DNA of 64,000 nucleotides from a virus (Duplodnaviria > Caudoviricetes), in the IMG/VR virus record IMGVR_UViG_3300032007_000015; one strand, given 5' to 3'. The notes beneath the pieces are model-generated. The model worked only from the letters and a program-made list of their open reading frames with translations, had not been told where the DNA came from and did no database searches. This document shows positions 1,335 to 45,539 of the stretch, in pieces. Each line of letters opens with the position of its first letter. Position 1 is the first letter of the stretch. Both the position numbers and the translations under genes were made by a program.

Positions 1335-1407
1335 AAAGGTTCCGTAGTCATCCTTTAAAAAACTACGTCACTTAACTTCCATATGGCTAAGTGGGAAAGG
1401 AGTTAAT
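1335..1407 (+). ncRNA. preQ1-I-riboswitch-like pseudoknot leader with expression platform
   Basis: AAAGG(1335-39)/CCTTT(1352-56) stem, 12-nt loop TTCCGTAGTCAT, tail AAAAAACTACG; CGTAG(1343-47) pairs with CTACG(1363-67). Confidence 0.55.
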
Positions 1408-18486: not shown

Positions 18487-21400
18487 TTATCCAAGAGCTA
18501 TTAATGACGCAAGGTCATAATTTCTTGTATCTTTTTTCATATCAATATTAGAAATATCATTTGAATTTTCTAATACATTTTGTATAGTTGAATTATTTCT
18601 TCCATTATTACCTGATACAATAATATTGTTATTAGTACGAATATTATCAAGTTTCTTAGAAGAATCATTTGTATTAGTATTAATACTCTTAAGAACATCT
18701 ACAACATCAGATAATAAACGTTCCATTTTAGAAGTATCTACTATTTTATTTAATTGATTTTGATTTGTTATTTTATTAGTTATTTCTGATGATCTAGCTT
18801 CATTTCTGAGAACATTACTTGGTAATCTTGTAAAACTATTATCATCAGATTGTACATTTGAACCTTCACCCATTCCTGATATATCAACATCTTTATACTG
18901 ATTATAGTATTCAGTTGCCTTTGGAATACGTGTTGCAGCTAATCCTGGTTTTCCAGCACGTTCAAATGCTTTCTCAAATTGTATAGCTGCATTTGTTGGA
19001 TCTGTACTATTTTTAAAGCCCTCTATAGTTGTTGCAGGAGCGTTATAATGATTGACTTTATCTCGATCATTTATAGTTTTTGATAAACCAAAATAATATC
19101 CAAGACCATTAATTTCTTGATTTGCATAATCTAACTGTGTTTGTAAATCTGTCCATGTTGTATTCCTCTGTGAAGCGAGATTATTTAATCCACCAAATCT
19201 TCCAGATTTTGTATTATAGTTTTCCCATTGGAATAATCCAGCTGCAGGTCCAACCTCTTCACCTTTACTATTTTTTTGAATAGAAGATGGATCGAAATGA
19301 GATTCCTCTTCAATATTACCCATAATACCGGCTGTAGCAGCTGCTGAATATCCATTAGATCTAAAATATTTCCATACTGCTTTTTTAACGGCATCCTGGC
19401 TTGAAGTATCTGTATTGGAAACATCTGCAGAACCAGTTGTATTATTACTACTTGTTCCTGTTCCAAAATCTATATTTTTATTATCAAATGCATTACTATT
19501 ACCATATAAGTAATTATTTCCTGCAGTACTAACTGCGTCAAATACAGATGATAAACCATTAGAGAATGAGCTAAAGAAATCATTTCCTTCTGTTGTTGTA
19601 GATGAAGTATTTTCTACTGTAGCATCACTATTGCTAGGAACGAATGATTCTTTTCCATCAGGGAATTTGATTTTTCTACCTTTTATGCTTGTTTCATTAA
19701 TGAAACGTCTAGCTTTAACAAATCCGCCACCCATTTTCTTAAAGTATGCTGTATTTCCACTAACCGTTGATTCATAGGGTCCTTTTGCAGTTCCTCCATT
19801 ACCATCAGATTTACCACCTTGACCCATAGTTTTATCAAACGTTCCATCGCCAACATACATTTCTACGTGAGATACTTTTCTTCCACCTTCGTTGAAGTAA
19901 ACTAAGTCACCACATTGTAATTGAGATATATCACAAGTTCCATCTGATGATGGGAAAATATCCTTAACACCAGATATGCTGTTATTATCAATCTGTGAAG
20001 CTGTAGATGTACCAAATGAGAAATCACTACCAAGTGCTTTATGATATGCCCATCTTACGGTTGATGAACAGTCACCACTACCTTCACCAGTTAATCCTCT
20101 TTCACTATCTGCATCACTTCTATTTGATTGACTATATACATTTTTTTCTTTAATAGCATACATCCATGCACATACTGCACGTTGAGCTTTTTGTACAGCT
20201 GTTTCATCACCAAAACCTATTAGCTTTCTACGAATACCTCTCTTTATAAGTCTATTGACAACTTTTTTACCGACAGGTGTTTTGTATATTGCATGTGCAA
20301 CTTTAGCAGCAGTTGTAATAGTTTTACCTACTGAACCACCTGAAACATTTTTATTCTTAAATGACCAAGCAGCCCTAGATTCACTATCAATAATTTCTGG
20401 TGAAACTGTACCTGAGTAATTTATTCCTCGTGGGTCATTTACTATAATATTACCATTTTCATCAGTACCAACAGCAACGATATAATGACCACGCTTTGTG
20501 TATGGTGAATTATAACTTCCATCACTCATACCATTAAGTATAACAGGATTTCCATGTTTTAATTCATTTATAACACTTTGAGATGTAGGAGTTACCCTCT
20601 TATCTGATAATCCAAATTTATCACTAGCTGAATCAATGAATTTAGAGTTTGTACCATTAGAATCTCTATATCCAGAAGAAAGTGCAAATTTAGACATTTT
20701 ATCAGGTGTTACATTATTACCTGTTAATTCTGAGACAACCATTGACATAGATGTTGGTGCACAACCAGCATCACCAATAGTTGCGTTATCATTAGTTGTA
20801 CTATTTGCATATTTATTATTTCTCCATTTAGAATCATTCTGAGAAAAATATTTAAAGTCATTTACAGTGTCTGGACCGTATCCAGATAAATTACTTTGTA
20901 ATTTATTTTTTATTGTATTATTTTTTCTAGTAGTATTAACTAATTTAAATGCACCATTACCAGAACCTGATGTATTTGAAGTAGAACTAGTTGTATCTGT
21001 AGTTTTTTCAGCTTCTGTTACGAAGTTTTCATAGATTTTATACATCATATCATCAGAAGAGAGTTTACCACTTTTAATCATTTTTTTGATTTTTTTAGCA
21101 AATTCTTTTCCTTGTACAGATATTGTTATCATTTTCTCTTTTACCCAGATACCCATTGAACGTTCTTTCATAAATGTATCGAGTTCGCTTCCTGTTACAT
21201 TTTCTTTAATTAAATCTCCAGTTGCGGCATAATGATTCCATGTGCCATCAGTCTGCTCAACATAATAAGAGAAATCCTTATTTGAGAACCATGCATAACC
21301 AGATTCTTTACTGTTTTTAGTATTTTCTACATACTTATTATAGAAGTCTTCTTCGGAATCACTATATTTTTTCTTTAGTTTTTCGGCTGCTTTAGGATTT

Positions 21401-24400
21401 ATTTTACTAAGCATATCTACATTTTTTAAATATTGGTTTAGATATTTAACTGGGAATGTTGCAACTTCATATACTCCATTCTCAATATTCTTTATAATTT
21501 CTTTTACTTTTTTGGTTTTAGATATTGTCTTTATATACTTTTTGGTTGATAATGAATATACTTCAAATGAGTAACCTGAACGTATATAAACTTGATCATT
21601 ATCTTTGTCAACCCAACATTTAACTTCTTTAGTTGATTTAGACATTTCAGCAATGTCCGAAATTAAATTATTTTTATTGACTTTTCCGCCAGTAAAGAAC
21701 TTCTTAATATTCTTAGCAGCTTTCTTAGTTTTACTAACAGCCCATTTGGTACCTTTCTTTATACCTTTTCCAGCCTTAACTACTCCACTCATAATATGAG
21801 CTCCAATAGTTTTATTTTGGTCAGCGTTCCAATCTTCATAAGATTTCACTTTAACCTTATATTTTCCACTTTCAACACCTTTTAAATAATCATCATATGA
21901 TAAATCATCTTCAGATTTATTATTCTTCTTAAGGTATTTTTTATAGGCTTCTTGATATTTCTTATCTTTGTAATCCTCATATTTCTCTTTTTGTTTTTCC
22001 TGTTTTTCAACAAGTTTATCGTATCCTTTTGTATCACCAGTAAGTTTACATAATCCTTCATATAAAACCGAAGCTAATTTTGTAAACATATTCCATTGAA
22101 GCACACTTGCAACAAGACTATTGATTACATCAAGAATACTACCGGTTGTAGTTCCTTTAAACATACCAAAACACGTTGCAATTACTTTCATTTTCCAATC
22201 GACTTTTGAACCTTTTGGAATTTGGAATAATCTTCGTGGATTTGATAATTCATTAAGACCTAATATTAATGATTCCGTTGAATGTTTGATAAGAGTACCA
22301 AGACCAGCTGTTGATGCAGCTAATGTTGACTCACCAGCTAATTTCGCAGATACAAATGCTGATATTGCTGGGAATTTTTTATTAAGTAAAGCAACTACTT
22401 TACTTGCTATTGGTCCAGTTTGATTTTTAGCCATCTGTTCAGCACCTTCAGTTGCACCTTTTTTAGCAGCTTCTTTACCAAACTTAGAACATAATTTGCT
22501 TATAAAGCCTTCAAACATTTTAATTACTTTACCTTTAAGTCCGCCAGCAGCTTTTTCGGTTACTTCACTTGCAACTGTATTTGCTACTTTTGATGCAGCT
22601 ACTTCACTACCTTCCTTGACTAATGTTTCGGTTCCATATTTGGTTATTGCTTTAGTTGCTGTTTTAGTTGCATATCTTTCTGCAAACTTTTCAGCACCCT
22701 TTTCACCTAATGTATTTTTTGTCTTTTTTATTATTTGCTCTTTAGCAACATCTTTAATGGTATCCGTCGTTAAATCAGTACCAGCATTTAAAACGGCTTC
22801 TTTCGCAGCTTTTTTTGCAGCCACTTTACCAGCAGTCTTAACAATGACTTTCTTAGCAGCTTTACCAGCAACTGAATTTTTTATTCTGTGATATAAAAAA
22901 TTCATTTTAGCACCAGATTGTGCGTCATATTCGCCATCTTCATTTAAAACATAATCTTTTATATTTAAATTAGCTAAGTTAACATCTCTTTTAACATTTT
23001 CTTTTATACTTTCAGCAGCATTTTGACCATCTTTTCTATCACTATCTTTACCTTTATCACTACTTCCAAGTAATGAATCCCATAGTCCTTTACACATATC
23101 TTTCCAACCACCAAGACTTCCTAAGAAATTCATAAGTGGTTTAGCAACATTAACTAATCCTTTACCGACAGTTGATACCAAAGATACTACAGTAGGGCCA
23201 ATTGATTTAATTAGGCTAGCAATTTTTGGTAAAAATAATATAAGTCCAGCACCTATCAATCCTTTTTTACTAAATAATCCCATTATTGGTGAGATTAATT
23301 TAAATAATTTAGATTGATGTTTATTCATCTTCTTCATCTGAATTGTTTCAGGTGAATCAGTTGGTTTTATATCATCGGTGTCATCATCTTTATTTTTATT
23401 TGTATAACTTCCTTTTTTACGTGCTTCATCTAATTCAGCATCTTCTTTTTTCTTTTCTTCTTCACGTTTATTAAATTGAGCATTTATAATACTCTTTCTA
23501 GTAATTTTAAGAGGGTCTGCCAATTCAGCATTTAATTTATCTTGTGCTTTTTTTGATACATCATCAATTGCAACTCTGATCGGTTTATACATATCAGAAT
23601 GTACTTTTTCGCCACCCCTAAATGTTACAATTTCTGGTTTGTTTTCACCAACTACGGCTTGACCAGGTTTTGCATTATCAGTACCTTTAGCATAGTGAGG
23701 TAAACTTTCAAAAGATTCAAGATAATCATTATATGATAAATCATCTTTAGTTAGACCTTCTTTTTTAAGATAGTTTTTCCATTTACGTAAACTTGGTTTA
23801 TCTCCTCTTTGATAATCACCAGAAGCCATTGCTTTTATAGTATCAATTGGATGTCTAGATAAATCTTTTATACGTCTATTTGTATTATCAAACCAATTTG
23901 AATGACTATCAACAGTTTGCTTGAAATTACGTAATGCACTATATACAGGTGTTCTCTTAAAAGCACGAGTTAATAGACCATCACTTGCATTGATATTATA
24001 AAGTTCTTTATCTATATCTGCAAGTGATTCATCTTCTTGTACAGGAGAATCATCTTCTTCCTCACCTCTACGTTTACCTGTAGGTGATTTACCTTGCAAG
24101 AAATTGTAAATCTTTTGTAAAATACTTACTTGCCTTTCTTCAACAGACAAATCAGTATCTTTCATTCCAGCTAATTGATCATTAGTTTTTTTCTTTAATA
24201 TTTCTGCTTTCTTTTCAGCAGTTGTTAAATCTTTTTTAGAAGCTTTCCAGTTTATTGACTTATGAGCTTTTCTAGCATTCATTTCGGCTAAACGAATATT
24301 CTCATCAGTATAATCTGTACGCTCACCATTTGTCCATTTATAGATAAGCTGTCTATTCTTATCAAGATTTTTATTATCTCTGAGTTCAGTTTTATTTCTT

Positions 24401-27400
24401 GCACGAGCAGCTTTTCTACGTTTTTTCAAACTACTATAATTGTCTGGCATATCAGATTGTTCGATTTCTTCACGTTTAGCATCACGTCTGACATTCCAAT
24501 TATGAATTACGTTTCCAATTTTGTTATTGGCTTTACCGGTTATATTTAAAGTTTTACGACCAAGAAATTTGGTTCCAGACCATAATAATCTAGGTATAAC
24601 CATATATGCATTAAATATAGTTTTTAATCCTTTAAATATAAATCTTCTAACAGGTTTAATTAAGTATTTATGAACACCACCAACTATTTTTCCAACACCT
24701 GATGTTGTTGCTTTTGTTATTAATCCTAATACTTTGAATGGGAAAGTTGCAATAGTTTTGCTTCCTTCATATAATAATGAAGCTGCAGAGTCAACAACTT
24801 TTGCAATAGGTTTTGTTATAGCTTCAAAAACCGGTTTAATTTTATTAGCTACAGTTTCTCCAATCTTTGAGAAAACTTCTTTTCCTTTTTTCTTAGTTCC
24901 AGTAACAAAATTTGCTATACCATCTGCTAATGGTTTAAAAGCTAATCTGGTAACTTCAAGTACATCATATTTTATAGTATTTTGAATATCTTTATAAATA
25001 TATTTAGCCCTTGTTGCAATTGGACTGAAAACATTTACTTTTAAGTAGTTTCCAAACTTTTCAAGAACACCAACTTTTTTCTTATTACCATTCTCATCTT
25101 TTTCTTTACTACCAAAAAGCCATTCTCTAAATCCAGATTCCTGAGCTTTAATTGACAATCCCAATCCGACTAAAGCACCACCAATAAGACCACCAGGACC
25201 AAGCATAGCACCCATTATACCAACTTTAGATATTAATGCTCCAGTTAATGCACCACCTGCAGCACCTACTATACCCATACCTAGTTTTTTCTTCATACTA
25301 GTATTTTCTTTGCTATCAGATTTATTAAATTTAGTAAGAATTCCTTTAAAACTTCCTAAAAGTCCTTTTCGTCCTTCTTCTTCATTACCAAATAAAAATT
25401 CATTAAATGTTTTTGATTTAAATAGCATTGTTGTTCCAATACCCATTATTGCACCAGCAATTGGACCACCAACTAATGCACCTAATATTCCACCACTTTT
25501 ACCAAGTATGACATTTTTAGCCATACCAACGGCAGCACCACCAATTAATAAATTTTTATTTTCTTTTACAAAAGTTTGGACTTTATTTGAGATGATTCCG
25601 CCTAATCTTTCACCAGTTTCTTCATCTTTTTCACCAAACAGAAATGTTTGGAATCTTTCAGATTTTCTAAAGAATCCTGTTAAAGTACCGATTGCCATTC
25701 CACCAAGAGGACCACCTATTAATGTACCTAGAAGTCCACCTGACATTGCTCCAACACCAAGACCAACTATACCACCTGTTATTGAGTCTGGCATTCGATC
25801 CATTATCATTTTTTTAATATTGTCAGCTGTTTGTTTTTCATCTTTTTCTGGATCTTTACCAAATAAAGCTTCACTCCATCCAGCTAATCCAGAACGAATA
25901 GTGCCAATAAATCCTGTTATTGATTTACCAGCCTTTTCACCAGCTTTTTTTATCTTTTCTCCCTTTTCATCTTCATCACCCTCAACTTTTTTCCCAAAAA
26001 GCTTTTTTGTAATTCCATCACGAATACTTGTAAAAATATTCTTCATGTTACTTATTACAGATTCTTTTTTAGCAGCGTGTTTCTCACCTTTACTATCAAT
26101 ATATTCTTTACCATTTATTTGACTCTTAAATTCATTCATTATATCTTTAAATGAATTAGAAGCAGATGCAAATAAACCGTTTTCTTTATAACCTTTATCA
26201 TTCTTTTTACCAAAGATACTTTCTTTTAAAGGATTAAAGAAATTTTTCTTCATTGAATCATGTAGAGACTTTAATTGGTCAGTGAATATTGCACTAAATT
26301 CAGACATTGCTGTTTTAGGATCACCAAACATCATTCCCCACATTGTATTTTTAATATGTCCTGTAGTTCTTGTGATTATGTCTTGTTCATCACTAACTTG
26401 GTCTGCTTTGATATAACGATTATATGATATACCAGAACCAGCTATATTACGAATCTGATTTTTAGACATTCTAGAAAGGTTCTTTTTACCTTTCTCATAT
26501 TCTTTTATTTGTTTATCTTCTTCTCGATTAGCCGATTTTCTAGCTTTTTCTTGATTTTCGAATAATTTAGTATAACCTTTCTTTTTATATACCGTTCCAC
26601 GAATATCATCATTGTTATTATAAGAAGAAGAATAAAGATTACCATACTCATTATTTTCTATTTCTGTAAGAGCTTGATTAAATGCATCTTTAGATTTGAG
26701 ACGTAATCCTCCTAGTGATAAACTAAAACTTTTATTATCAGCAAGTTGTGTTAAAATCTCACGTAATAATAATTCTTGATTTTTAGTTTTATAGTTAATA
26801 TTCTTGAGAATATTATCCATTTCACTACCAGAACGTAAATCTCCAGCATTTATATTAGCAGAAGAATTTTCTATCATCATTGCTAATTGCTCTAATACAG
26901 GTTCGAAGTTTTTCTGGTCTTTTACTTTTAATTCAGATATACCTTGTTCAATAGCTTTTCCAAACTCTGATGATCTAAATACACTAACAACAGATTCAGT
27001 GATTTTATTTGTTATATCCTTATCTATATCAGAATATTTAATATAACCACCTTTCTCTATACTAAATGTATCAGAGTCATTAATATTTCTTTCTGCACCT
27101 TTTTTATCAAAATGCATTGCTATTGTTTTAAGATATGCAGTACTTTCTCTTAAATACTTTGGTATAACCTCAACAACGGCATTTTGTGTACGTTTATCAA
27201 ATATAGCTGCATCTTTATTTACTTTTCTTTCAGATGAAATAGAATTTAATTGTTTTACATCTATACCGAATATATTACCAACAGCACGTTTAAATATACC
27301 TTGAAGACCACCATTTTTGTCATTTTTCCAAAGAGCTACCTTAGATAACATTTCAGGCATAAAGTCTGCAAATGCTTGATCCATACTTTTAATATTTTGG

Positions 27401-28335
27401 GCTATCATATTAGGAATCATTTTCTTAACGATAGTATCGGTCATCATTCCTAATGGATTTGATACAAGATGATTTAATAAATCTTCATCATTTAACATAT
27501 CACCCATAAACCCAATTGGACTATCTTTTAATGTCTTTGATATTGATTTCTTAAGATAATTCTTATATTCATAAGTACTGAATCCATTTTTTACAAATCT
27601 TGATCCATTTCTCCAATCATCGCTTGATGAGTCGTTATCATCTATCTTAGAACCAACTTTTTCAAAATATGCAGTAGCTGTTTCATACATCTTCAGTGTA
27701 TTTTCTTGTTGGAATGAAAGCATAGATGCCAATGTTGAATTAATATTTGTAAGATGGTTTAATATCTCATTACCCATTTGCTGATTTTGTAATAAACCAG
27801 CAGAACTTACAGATATAATAGTATCTATTGTAGCTTTACTAGCTTTTAATGTAGATTCAGTTTGCTTATTTATTGATTCATTCATCAATAATGTTGCTTC
27901 TGAAGAAGCAGTATCATTATAATTTATAGTAACATCAGAATCTATATCGCCAAATGAACTTTCAAATTCATCCAGATTATATTCTTTTTCCATTTCTTCG
28001 GCAACTCTATCCTGATTGTTAAATTTACCTGATTTAAGGTCTGCTAAAGAGTTATCTATAGCTTTTTTACCATACCGTATAAATTTATTTTTTTCTAATT
28101 CTGAACGTATGATATTAATATTAGCATTTTTACGTATTAAATCTTTAGCACTCTTAGCAGAGCTTCTAACAGTTTCACTAGCATCAAATATGTTTGGTGC
28201 TATATCTTTAAAAACTTTAGAAGATGAAATACCGATAGATTTAATTGCGTTATTAATCCATTTAGTATTCATATTTTTAACCTTTTCGGTTTTATAAGGT
28301 TTAGCAAACGCTTTAGCTCTAGAAGAACTACTCAT
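18487..28335 (-). CDS. Tape measure protein with C39-like peptidase, NlpC/P60 and phage tail lysozyme domains (3282 aa)
   Basis: Long helical Gly/Ala-rich body; FSQNDSKW..GCAPTSMSM..GHYIV..NDP; GDCSSTVRWAY..GDLVYF..HVEMYVG; AATAGIMGNIEEES..GLFQW..FEKAFER; late motif 28367-28378. Confidence 0.88.
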   Translation of the reverse strand: MSSSSRAKAFAKPYKTEKVKNMNTKWINNAIKSIGISSSKVFKDIAPNIFDASETVRSSAKSAKDLIRKNANINIIRSELEKNKFIRYGKKAIDNSLADLKSGKFNNQDRVAEEMEKEYNLDEFESSFGDIDSDVTINYNDTASSEATLLMNESINKQTESTLKASKATIDTIISVSSAGLLQNQQMGNEILNHLTNINSTLASMLSFQQENTLKMYETATAYFEKVGSKIDDNDSSSDDWRNGSRFVKNGFSTYEYKNYLKKSISKTLKDSPIGFMGDMLNDEDLLNHLVSNPLGMMTDTIVKKMIPNMIAQNIKSMDQAFADFMPEMLSKVALWKNDKNGGLQGIFKRAVGNIFGIDVKQLNSISSERKVNKDAAIFDKRTQNAVVEVIPKYLRESTAYLKTIAMHFDKKGAERNINDSDTFSIEKGGYIKYSDIDKDITNKITESVVSVFRSSEFGKAIEQGISELKVKDQKNFEPVLEQLAMMIENSSANINAGDLRSGSEMDNILKNINYKTKNQELLLREILTQLADNKSFSLSLGGLRLKSKDAFNQALTEIENNEYGNLYSSSYNNNDDIRGTVYKKKGYTKLFENQEKARKSANREEDKQIKEYEKGKKNLSRMSKNQIRNIAGSGISYNRYIKADQVSDEQDIITRTTGHIKNTMWGMMFGDPKTAMSEFSAIFTDQLKSLHDSMKKNFFNPLKESIFGKKNDKGYKENGLFASASNSFKDIMNEFKSQINGKEYIDSKGEKHAAKKESVISNMKNIFTSIRDGITKKLFGKKVEGDEDEKGEKIKKAGEKAGKSITGFIGTIRSGLAGWSEALFGKDPEKDEKQTADNIKKMIMDRMPDSITGGIVGLGVGAMSGGLLGTLIGGPLGGMAIGTLTGFFRKSERFQTFLFGEKDEETGERLGGIISNKVQTFVKENKNLLIGGAAVGMAKNVILGKSGGILGALVGGPIAGAIMGIGTTMLFKSKTFNEFLFGNEEEGRKGLLGSFKGILTKFNKSDSKENTSMKKKLGMGIVGAAGGALTGALISKVGIMGAMLGPGGLIGGALVGLGLSIKAQESGFREWLFGSKEKDENGNKKKVGVLEKFGNYLKVNVFSPIATRAKYIYKDIQNTIKYDVLEVTRLAFKPLADGIANFVTGTKKKGKEVFSKIGETVANKIKPVFEAITKPIAKVVDSAASLLYEGSKTIATFPFKVLGLITKATTSGVGKIVGGVHKYLIKPVRRFIFKGLKTIFNAYMVIPRLLWSGTKFLGRKTLNITGKANNKIGNVIHNWNVRRDAKREEIEQSDMPDNYSSLKKRRKAARARNKTELRDNKNLDKNRQLIYKWTNGERTDYTDENIRLAEMNARKAHKSINWKASKKDLTTAEKKAEILKKKTNDQLAGMKDTDLSVEERQVSILQKIYNFLQGKSPTGKRRGEEEDDSPVQEDESLADIDKELYNINASDGLLTRAFKRTPVYSALRNFKQTVDSHSNWFDNTNRRIKDLSRHPIDTIKAMASGDYQRGDKPSLRKWKNYLKKEGLTKDDLSYNDYLESFESLPHYAKGTDNAKPGQAVVGENKPEIVTFRGGEKVHSDMYKPIRVAIDDVSKKAQDKLNAELADPLKITRKSIINAQFNKREEEKKKEDAELDEARKKGSYTNKNKDDDTDDIKPTDSPETIQMKKMNKHQSKLFKLISPIMGLFSKKGLIGAGLILFLPKIASLIKSIGPTVVSLVSTVGKGLVNVAKPLMNFLGSLGGWKDMCKGLWDSLLGSSDKGKDSDRKDGQNAAESIKENVKRDVNLANLNIKDYVLNEDGEYDAQSGAKMNFLYHRIKNSVAGKAAKKVIVKTAGKVAAKKAAKEAVLNAGTDLTTDTIKDVAKEQIIKKTKNTLGEKGAEKFAERYATKTATKAITKYGTETLVKEGSEVAASKVANTVASEVTEKAAGGLKGKVIKMFEGFISKLCSKFGKEAAKKGATEGAEQMAKNQTGPIASKVVALLNKKFPAISAFVSAKLAGESTLAASTAGLGTLIKHSTESLILGLNELSNPRRLFQIPKGSKVDWKMKVIATCFGMFKGTTTGSILDVINSLVASVLQWNMFTKLASVLYEGLCKLTGDTKGYDKLVEKQEKQKEKYEDYKDKKYQEAYKKYLKKNNKSEDDLSYDDYLKGVESGKYKVKVKSYEDWNADQNKTIGAHIMSGVVKAGKGIKKGTKWAVSKTKKAAKNIKKFFTGGKVNKNNLISDIAEMSKSTKEVKCWVDKDNDQVYIRSGYSFEVYSLSTKKYIKTISKTKKVKEIIKNIENGVYEVATFPVKYLNQYLKNVDMLSKINPKAAEKLKKKYSDSEEDFYNKYVENTKNSKESGYAWFSNKDFSYYVEQTDGTWNHYAATGDLIKENVTGSELDTFMKERSMGIWVKEKMITISVQGKEFAKKIKKMIKSGKLSSDDMMYKIYENFVTEAEKTTDTTSSTSNTSGSGNGAFKLVNTTRKNNTIKNKLQSNLSGYGPDTVNDFKYFSQNDSKWRNNKYANSTTNDNATIGDAGCAPTSMSMVVSELTGNNVTPDKMSKFALSSGYRDSNGTNSKFIDSASDKFGLSDKRVTPTSQSVINELKHGNPVILNGMSDGSYNSPYTKRGHYIVAVGTDENGNIIVNDPRGINYSGTVSPEIIDSESRAAWSFKNKNVSGGSVGKTITTAAKVAHAIYKTPVGKKVVNRLIKRGIRRKLIGFGDETAVQKAQRAVCAWMYAIKEKNVYSQSNRSDADSERGLTGEGSGDCSSTVRWAYHKALGSDFSFGTSTASQIDNNSISGVKDIFPSSDGTCDISQLQCGDLVYFNEGGRKVSHVEMYVGDGTFDKTMGQGGKSDGNGGTAKGPYESTVSGNTAYFKKMGGGFVKARRFINETSIKGRKIKFPDGKESFVPSNSDATVENTSSTTTEGNDFFSSFSNGLSSVFDAVSTAGNNYLYGNSNAFDNKNIDFGTGTSSNNTTGSADVSNTDTSSQDAVKKAVWKYFRSNGYSAAATAGIMGNIEEESHFDPSSIQKNSKGEEVGPAAGLFQWENYNTKSGRFGGLNNLASQRNTTWTDLQTQLDYANQEINGLGYYFGLSKTINDRDKVNHYNAPATTIEGFKNSTDPTNAAIQFEKAFERAGKPGLAATRIPKATEYYNQYKDVDISGMGEGSNVQSDDNSFTRLPSNVLRNEARSSEITNKITNQNQLNKIVDTSKMERLLSDVVDVLKSINTNTNDSSKKLDNIRTNNNIIVSGNNGRNNSTIQNVLENSNDISNIDMKKDTRNYDLASLIALG

Positions 28336-45466: not shown

Positions 45467-45539
45467 TGGGCTATCGCCAAGCGGTAAGGCACAGGACTTT
45501 GACTCCTGCATTACGTTGGTTCGAATCCAACTAGCCCAG
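45467..45539 (+). tRNA. tRNA-Gln(UUG), no encoded CCA
   Basis: TGGGCTA/TAGCCCA acceptor stem, GCCAAGCGGTAAGGC D-arm, CAGGA-CTTTGAC-TCCTG anticodon arm, GTTCGAATCC T-loop. Confidence 0.96.

Follow-up and report, generated by a model that had tools for sequence, protein, structure and literature searches.

Repeated cassettes in the phage genome

The window analyzed here is a stretch of 64,000 nucleotides from an IMG/VR virus record that comprises 158,316 bases, is approximately 66% complete, and has a G+C content of approximately 25%. A one-gene cassette lies near its left end. The promoter, transcript, gene, and terminator of this cassette are as follows.

1283–1316, + strand: early-type promoter, with an upstream element CGTAAACT at 1284–1291 and an AT-rich core ending in TGATATAAT at 1302–1310, then 6 nt
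1317–1407, + strand: predicted 5′ UTR, with its probable start at G1317, the first base of the conserved GTGAATAA
1408–1593, + strand: open reading frame (ORF) of 61 amino acids (aa), hydrophobic at the N-terminus and without a family match
1592–1638, + strand: intrinsic terminator at the end of the one-gene cassette, with a stem of 20 bp and then a T run

The promoter is present in approximately nine near-identical copies in the genome record, and GTGAATAA is conserved among these copies. The published AR9 work (PMC5312081) gives the early promoter consensus of that phage as AAATATATATTAT-N6-G(+1), with an upstream CCGTAT element in many promoters. We compared positions 1283–1317 with AR9 Table S2 and with the published consensus. 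The long AT-rich element, the 6 nt, the G, and the upstream CCGTA-type element all match. By analogy, the promoter at 1283–1316 may be read by a virion RNA polymerase. Because the AR9 rule is N6 followed by G (+1), the start of transcription is placed at G1317, and the motif at 1335–1367 would begin 18 nt into a 91-nt leader. In the pig-gut run X4, the promoter segment 1287–1327 has approximately 27 times the contig depth of the neighboring single-copy DNA. This depth, together with the breaks of the Logan contigs at the promoter, shows that the promoter occurs in many copies and fragments the assemblies. The RNA run X20 yielded just short fragments, which carry nothing on where transcripts start. 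The 61-aa ORF is uncovered in runs X9 and X17, but the Logan contigs break at repeats, and this is not evidence of absence. Terminator sites of the kind seen at 1592–1638 were found twice, compared with 0.0 expected. At one site, a terminator abuts the next early promoter directly.

The stretch 1300–1420 (approximately 120 nt) is present six times in the 158-kb record. The covariance model R1, built from the copies, recovers exactly these six and none further at E ≤ 0.1. Each copy consists of an early-type promoter, the motif, a second hairpin, the invariant GGGAAAGGAG (a strong Shine–Dalgarno sequence, SD), a short spacer, and an ATG. The six downstream ORFs are mutually unrelated (61, 130, 111, 113, 47, and 70 aa). 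One of them contains a LysM domain, and the other five have no Pfam or PHROG match. The 113-aa ORF (L004:1172–1513, − strand) belongs to a large uncharacterized family of at least 460 proteins. It adjoins thymidylate synthase in the relatives of the phage (L056–L065), and more distant homologs lack the leader.

Orthologous leaders were recovered through protein look-ups in ENA gut-metagenome contigs. With the paralogs they make up 12 distinct versions in three classes (A, B, and C). Homologs of the 113-aa protein outside the phage lineage (L058 and L065) have upstream DNA that is unrelated to the leader, so the leader goes with the phage rather than with the gene. As judged by comparing these sequences, leaders have been exchanged between genes and between genomes. 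One leader subtype precedes the 47-aa ORF in the 158-kb record and the 113-aa ORF in L059, and, ahead of the 111-aa gene, hairpin 2 is swapped as a whole between the 158-kb genome and L052/L053. The repeated promoter–leader units may serve as recombination points that shuffle accessory genes.

Within the collections searched, the leader motif is confined to one phage lineage. A BLAST search of positions 1000–2200 against cultured phages gave no match. Two scans of viral contigs for the leader pattern gave 0 and 31 hits, the latter all in GC-rich, unrelated contigs. The same kind of scan gave one chance match in JGI metagenomes, in GC-rich coding DNA, and one among 185,579 species genomes, in an Oscillospiraceae MAG that does not match R1. 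R1 found nothing in AR9, Machias, and LPJP1, and nothing in the sole IMG/VR relative found by the tail sheath (34% identity). By its tail sheath, the phage is a distant relative of AR9, PBS1, and phiR1-37. The nearest cultured relatives for this protein are PBS1 and AR9 (Bacillus), Yersinia phage phiR1-37, and jumbo phages of Staphylococcus and Listeria, all at approximately 25% identity. Metagenomes from the guts of cattle and pigs often contain the phage, with at least half of the sampled words present in 18 runs.

Structure and covariation of the leader RNA

The motif reads AAAGG (1335–1339), TTCCGTAGTCAT (1340–1351), CCTTT (1352–1356), AAAAAA (1357–1362), and CTACG (1363–1367). This agrees letter for letter with the initial annotation of the locus. 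T1351 lies directly 5′ of the 3′ strand of the first helix (P1). The 12-nt loop opens with TTC, and CTACG is complementary to CGTAG in this loop. The initial annotation described an H-type pseudoknot that stands out in AT-rich DNA. Taken as a single sequence, the motif is not beyond chance. We scanned both strands of the window for the same geometry (two 5-bp Watson–Crick stems with at least two G–C pairs each, and loops of 2–4, 2–6, and 4–8 nt) and found 3 distinct sites, compared with a mean of 0.85 in 20 dinucleotide shuffles. The local fold is also unremarkable (z = −0.86 for the 95-nt fold around the motif). The motif is counted as real because it is repeated with covariation, and not from the single-sequence pattern. 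The elements of this predicted pseudoknot (pseudoknot 1) are listed below.

1335–1339, + strand: 5′ strand of P1, AAAGG, pairing with 1352–1356 (support weak to moderate)
1340–1342, + strand: loop L1, UUC, of which the first two U are invariant
1343–1348, + strand: 5′ strand of P2, CGUAGU, pairing with 1362–1367, with 100% of cells paired
1349–1351, + strand: loop L2, CAU here and CAU, AAU, or UU across classes, with the last U (U1351) invariant
1352–1356, + strand: 3′ strand of P1, CCUUU, also complementary to the SD at 1396–1401
1357–1361, + strand: A-rich loop L3, 5 nt here and approximately 7–10 nt in classes B and C
1362–1367, + strand: 3′ strand of P2, ACUACG, pairing with 1343–1348 and covarying

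The second hairpin and the translation start follow directly.

1368–1394, + strand: hairpin 2, stem 1368–1377 with 1385–1394; the copy that contains 1335–1367 has an A1375/C1387 mismatch
1378–1384, + strand: 7-nt loop of hairpin 2, UCCAUAU, with CAU in the center (UUCAUGU in class B)
1377–1384, + strand: hairpin-2 loop segment, predicted stem 2 of pseudoknot 2, pairing with 1406–1413
1394–1402, + strand: Shine–Dalgarno sequence GGAAAGGAG, invariant, in the connecting loop of the predicted pseudoknot 2
1406–1413, + strand: start-codon region AUAUGGAA, complementary to the hairpin-2 loop

In an unfitted MAFFT alignment of the six paralogs, RNAalifold predicts two abutting helices, one formed by 1343–1348 with 1362–1367 (P2) and the other being hairpin 2 at 1368–1394. 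The P1 pairing and the loop–start pseudoknot pairing were added to these helices for the pairing counts. In this six-sequence alignment, 94.8% of the cells are paired, compared with 32–43% when the partners are slid, and 10 pairs are changed on both sides (0–3 when slid). In the alignment of the 12 versions, which was fitted to P2 and hairpin 2, 98.9% of 276 cells are paired (29–44% when slid) and there are 9 double-sided changes (0–3 when slid); three sequence classes amount to few independent events, paralogs may homogenize by gene conversion, and the shuffle control overstates significance for related sequences.

P2 occurs as CGUAG/CUACG, CGUGG/CCACG, and CGUAA/UUACG, with two compensatory positions (A–U to G–C and G–C to A–U). 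The loop–tail pairing of the initial annotation covaries, but its length of 5 bp is better taken as 6 bp, through one further U–A pair (1343–1348 with 1362–1367). A G–U wobble at G1344/1366, arising from C1366 to U, is present in four distinct versions from two classes (A′ and B) and counts as two independent wobbles. The same C to T change at 1366 is found in contigs from pig-gut runs. On the opposite strand this wobble would be an A–C mismatch, and thus the structure is one of the sense-strand RNA.

In hairpin 2, four to five pairs are changed on both sides with pairing kept. The complementarity of its loop to the start region is 8 bp in the class A copy and 7 bp in classes B and C, and 7–8 bp are available in every version. 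Two of these pairs are compensated (start-codon −1 and +4) and one is a U–G wobble. We predict that this loop–start pairing forms a second pseudoknot. Two covariations, in P2 and in the loop–start pairing, arose in the same class B lineage. As a result of this shared origin, P2 is at one position inseparable from an alternative pairing of its 5′ strand with the start region. The comparison of homologs shows P2, hairpin 2, and the loop–start complementarity to be a covarying sense-strand RNA structure. Covariation in related phages was the check proposed in the initial annotation; the helices do covary in the homologs, and the element is indeed phage-borne, with structure at the RNA level on the + strand.

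The 5′ half of pseudoknot 1 (1340–1347, UUCCGUAG) resembles the hairpin-2 loop (1377–1384, UUCCAUAU), and the start region is complementary to each of them. Their class B counterparts both have G where class A has A.

P1 is the least supported helix. Its inner GG/CC is invariant in 12 of 12 versions while the neighbors vary. The third pair changes from A–U to U–A in class C. The fourth is A–U, U–A, or a mismatch, with U–A restored in one class B subtype, and the fifth is present in class A only. Beyond GG/CC, one clean flip and one partial compensation suggest the helix with weak to moderate strength. The 5-bp P1 of the initial annotation applies to the copy at 1335–1367, but not to the other classes, in which P1 has 3–4 bp. 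The length of L2 is 2–3 nt across classes. L3 varies in sequence as well as in length, with single-base insertions in orthologs and indels even between close ones.

The single-helix energies are −0.8 to −2.9 kcal mol−1 for P1, −1.9 to −6.9 kcal mol−1 for P2, and −3.8 to −7.3 kcal mol−1 for hairpin 2. These energies are small, so tertiary stacking or a partner would matter. In class A, the minimum-energy nested fold (−17 to −23 kcal mol−1) occludes the SD and the AUG with the strands of pseudoknot 1, which act in it as anti-SD and anti-start. The pseudoknotted form is therefore a candidate functional conformer. We considered the closed nested fold as a conserved state and rejected it, since the predictions show it for class A, just in part for class C, and not at all for class B. 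An alternative pairing of TTAACTTC with GGAGTTAA was set aside as specific to class A. A leader peptide from the AUG in the hairpin-2 loop was also rejected. Inspection of the alignment by eye showed that it lacks an upstream SD and varies in frame and length from class to class.

A second leader type is found behind the same promoter. It consists of compact H-type pseudoknots of 26–28 nt. Together with related pseudoknots at the 3′ ends of cassettes, these make up 8 sites, compared with 0–1 in shuffles. The following sites carry them.

L008:1545–1572, + strand: compact pseudoknot
L007 (genome 11423 and 11024), − strand: compact pseudoknots
L004 near 1164 (genome 142752), − strand: compact pseudoknot
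Genome 5561, 103423, and 158016: compact pseudoknots

The 5′-leader form reads GUC-CA-GCUC-AU-GAC-UUAAAACC-GAGC. In the form found at 3′ ends, stem 2 is reversed, and one copy also has stem 1 flipped (GUC/GAC to GAC/GUC). The 3′-end copies lie at the ends of cassettes and have a small terminator hairpin with its T run just downstream.

Comparison with preQ1-I riboswitches

The initial annotation read the motif as a preQ1-I-like aptamer. The likeness of layout is upheld. Like preQ1-I (RF00522, types I–III), the leader has a predicted H-type pseudoknot of approximately 33 nt with an L1 that opens with UU, an A-rich L3, and a loop–tail P2, and P2 of the copy at 1335–1367 contains UAG/CUA. The identity as a preQ1-I aptamer did not survive. 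At Rfam gathering thresholds, a tRNA is the sole match in the window. At permissive settings, the search with the Rfam PreQ1 model proposed in that annotation gives a sub-threshold 12.9 bits, compared with the threshold of 39 (E = 3 on 201 nt), and most of this score comes from UAAAAAACUA. Across the 158-kb record, the PreQ1 model gives two copies 12.9 bits, leaves four unlisted at E ≤ 10, and scores an unrelated site best, at 16 bits. Sub-threshold PreQ1 matches are present in 14 of 14 control genomes. Rfam searches of the other five paralog loci (L002–L006) at E ≤ 10 gave no riboswitch match.

In the preQ1-I types, the C on the 5′ side of the P1 3′ strand sets specificity, and it is part of UC in type I and of AC in types II and III (PMC11625349). 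The corresponding dinucleotide in the leader is AU or UU in 12 of 12 versions, and the preQ1-I cytosine is absent. The U that the initial annotation placed at 1351, where preQ1-I has C, is thus confirmed and extends to every copy. Its alternative register, with C1352 as the reader of the ligand, fails because P1 falls to at most 2 bp in classes B and C. The other pocket-equivalent bases are U1340 and the A residues on the 5′ side of the P2 3′ strand (A1361/1362), which are the equivalents of U6 and A30 of preQ1-I. Together with U1351, they are invariant in 12 of 12 versions.

The leader also departs from preQ1-I in its helices. P1 varies from 3 to 5 bp, L3 is variable, and the 6-bp P2 would be stable without ligand. 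The SD, at 1394–1402, neither overlaps nor adjoins P2. It lies 27 nt past P2 and beyond hairpin 2, and there is no terminator after the motif. The leader is present in multiple copies ahead of unrelated genes. QueC, TGT/DpdA, and PurZ were sought in the 158-kb record (approximately 66% complete) and were not found. The statement in the initial annotation that the downstream gene is not a queuosine gene agrees with the 61-aa ORF, which has no family match. The leader is not a member of preQ1-I, because the score, the specificity cytosine, the expression platform, and the gene association all fail.

A ligand sensor could still be built on a related fold. It would be a C-to-U variant of preQ1-I that binds a purine with an adenine-like face, such as adenine, 2,6-diaminopurine, or a deazapurine. 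Binding would stabilize P1 and P2, release the SD and AUG from the competing closed fold, and so switch on an early-gene regulon. The C17U mutant of the B. subtilis aptamer reportedly shifts specificity towards 2,6-diaminopurine, as Roth and co-workers are said to have found in 2007. The shared layout is consistent with such a sensor. The equivalents of U6, C17, and A30 (U1340, U1351, and the A on the 5′ side of the P2 3′ strand) stay invariant though the rest of L2 and L3 varies, and a stabler nested fold of class A uses the pseudoknot 1 strands to mask the SD and the start, which resembles the design of a switch. We nevertheless consider this sensor highly improbable. Beyond the sub-threshold scores, P1 shrinks to 3 bp, L3 ranges from 5 to approximately 10 nt with indels between close orthologs, and class B lacks a predicted closed fold that would compete. 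The six genes that it would regulate are functionally unrelated, and searches of the incomplete 158-kb record for Que, DpdA, and PurZ genes found none. The motif occurs only as chance matches in the species genomes, IMG/VR, and the JGI metagenomes. In addition, this genome has pseudoknot modules of unrelated sequence at the equivalent position in other leaders and at 3′ ends. These points and the varying L2 also argue against the metabolite sensor inferred in the initial annotation. The space of the preQ1-I ligand could be filled without ligand by a U1340/U1351 layer and a U1348–A1362 pair. If true, the sensor reading would give the first natural specificity-switched aptamer of preQ1-I type and the first phage riboswitch regulon. 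The case also calls for caution. In AT-rich DNA, a single sequence may look convincingly like a riboswitch of very small size at close to the chance level, and only the comparison of paralogs and orthologs settled the matter here.

Possible function of the leader and related systems

On balance, we think it somewhat probable that this stretch of approximately 75 nt is a modular 5′ leader with two pseudoknots in tandem, which influences translation initiation in cassettes of early accessory genes. Each gene would form a unit of its own, with promoter, leader, SD, ORF, and terminator, and at least six unrelated small accessory genes would be served in this way. P2 would close into a small H-type pseudoknot through GG/CC and one to three further P1 pairs, with an A-rich third loop. 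Pseudoknot 1 may act as a scaffold or recognition module and not as a small-molecule pocket. The invariance of the pocket-equivalent bases counts against the scaffold, since a ligand pocket would explain it as well. The hairpin-2 loop would present CAU at a place like that of a tRNA anticodon. Pseudoknot 2 would hold the AUG and leave the SD exposed. All mRNAs with the leader could then share one setting of initiation, which would come from the fold alone or from a phage or host factor that recognizes it in trans.

The main rival is a role in RNA stability or processing, in which the pseudoknots are barriers or sites for ribonucleases (RNase J1, RNase Y, or a phage nuclease) and set the half-life of the transcript. 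Compact pseudoknots are found at both transcript ends, and the 3′ ones lie just before terminator hairpins, which suits a role linked to ends better than translation. The structure is also kept while its sequence is free to change. Against this, pseudoknot 1 starts approximately 18–21 nt past the inferred 5′ end and would not give 5′-terminal protection, and the compensated loop–start pairing with the invariant SD between its strands points to initiation. We regard stability or processing as an unlikely main role, though one to be taken seriously. We are equally doubtful that there is no pseudoknot at all, and that the leader has only two adjacent hairpins, P2 with a loop of 13–15 nt and hairpin 2, with AAAGG/CCUUU being incidental. 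The 5-bp P1 is confined to class A, its extra A–U pairs lie in flanks so rich in A and U that pairing by chance is likely, the isolated P1 hairpin contributes −0.8 to −2.9 kcal mol−1, and the single-sequence pattern is near chance. The GG and CC are nonetheless invariant in the 12 versions, the third pair flips in class C, and the fourth is restored in a class B subtype. The sister compact family has a clean flip of stem 1 (GUC/GAC against GAC/GUC), and an L1 of 3 nt with an A-rich L3 fits an H-type knot. It is very improbable that the repeats are only a recombination scar, copied recently with the promoter as PeSL-like shuffling units that have no RNA function. The leaders do move together with a promoter present in multiple copies and have been exchanged between genes, and the elevated depth of the promoter segment in run X4 fits such copying. 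However, the classes differ widely and yet nearly all stem changes are compensated across the 276 cells, whereas drift after copying predicts otherwise.

Rfam and literature searches returned no family that matches the leader. The closest arrangement at the level of the cassette is that of the PeSL elements of T4-type phages, mobile repeats of terminator, early promoter, and stem-loop, which lie on either side of small variable ORFs and act as points of exchange (PMC2839356, PMC4122927). The phage resembles them in its multi-copy promoter (approximately nine) with six type-1 leaders, in the terminator that runs into a promoter, and in the swapping of leaders between genes. It differs in having an AR9-type early promoter where PeSL elements have a T4 sigma-70 early promoter. 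Moreover, the repeat here runs through a covarying tandem-pseudoknot leader to the SD and AUG.

For the second pseudoknot, the best parallel is the E. coli rpsO (S15) operator. In this operator, the region of the start codon reportedly pairs with a hairpin loop, leaving the SD in the connecting strand, and the ribosome is entrapped, as is said to have been described by Philippe and co-workers in 1993 and Marzi and co-workers in 2007. The 30S subunit can dock on the rpsO operator while the AUG is still held. The leader likewise has a hairpin loop complementary to the start-codon region and the SD in the connecting strand, here deduced from sequence alone. Whereas rpsO is one autoregulated gene whose protein ligand is known, the leader serves six unrelated genes and has an extra, predicted pseudoknot upstream. 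The leader of T4 gene 32 has a compact H-type pseudoknot, which is the nucleation site for translational repression by the product of the gene. The pseudoknot predicted here is likewise compact, of H-type, and on the 5′ side of a phage mRNA leader, but gene 32 stands alone in being repressed by the protein it encodes, with no start-codon pairing. The early transcripts of AR9, from the nearest phage group studied, share a 5′-UTR motif whose function is unexplained (PMC5312081, Fig. S3). Its likeness to the leader is by description only, namely that of a shared motif in early-transcript leaders.

The best-supported analogy is that the leader would act most like a translational operator pseudoknot inside a PeSL-like mobile regulatory cassette. 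If the translational reading holds, the phage has a regulon of accessory early genes run by one portable RNA operator of two tiny pseudoknots. It would also offer a handle on how early expression is coordinated and accessory genes are shuffled in AR9-like jumbo phages, where the early 5′-UTR motifs are unexplained. The leader would then be a compact, transferable part for translation control, with CAU in an anticodon-like 7-nt loop that faces the AUG of the gene it precedes.

Several other features of the window were recorded. An ORF on the − strand at 1–744, which runs off the window end, encodes a macro domain of the microbial-type poly(ADP-ribose) glycohydrolase (PF10021, E = 1.3e−23), and its product may counter host ADP-ribosylation. 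A phage tRNA-Gln with anticodon UUG lies on the + strand at 45467–45539 (61 bits). A single ORF of 3282 aa occupies 18487–28335 on the − strand, amid virion-protein genes.
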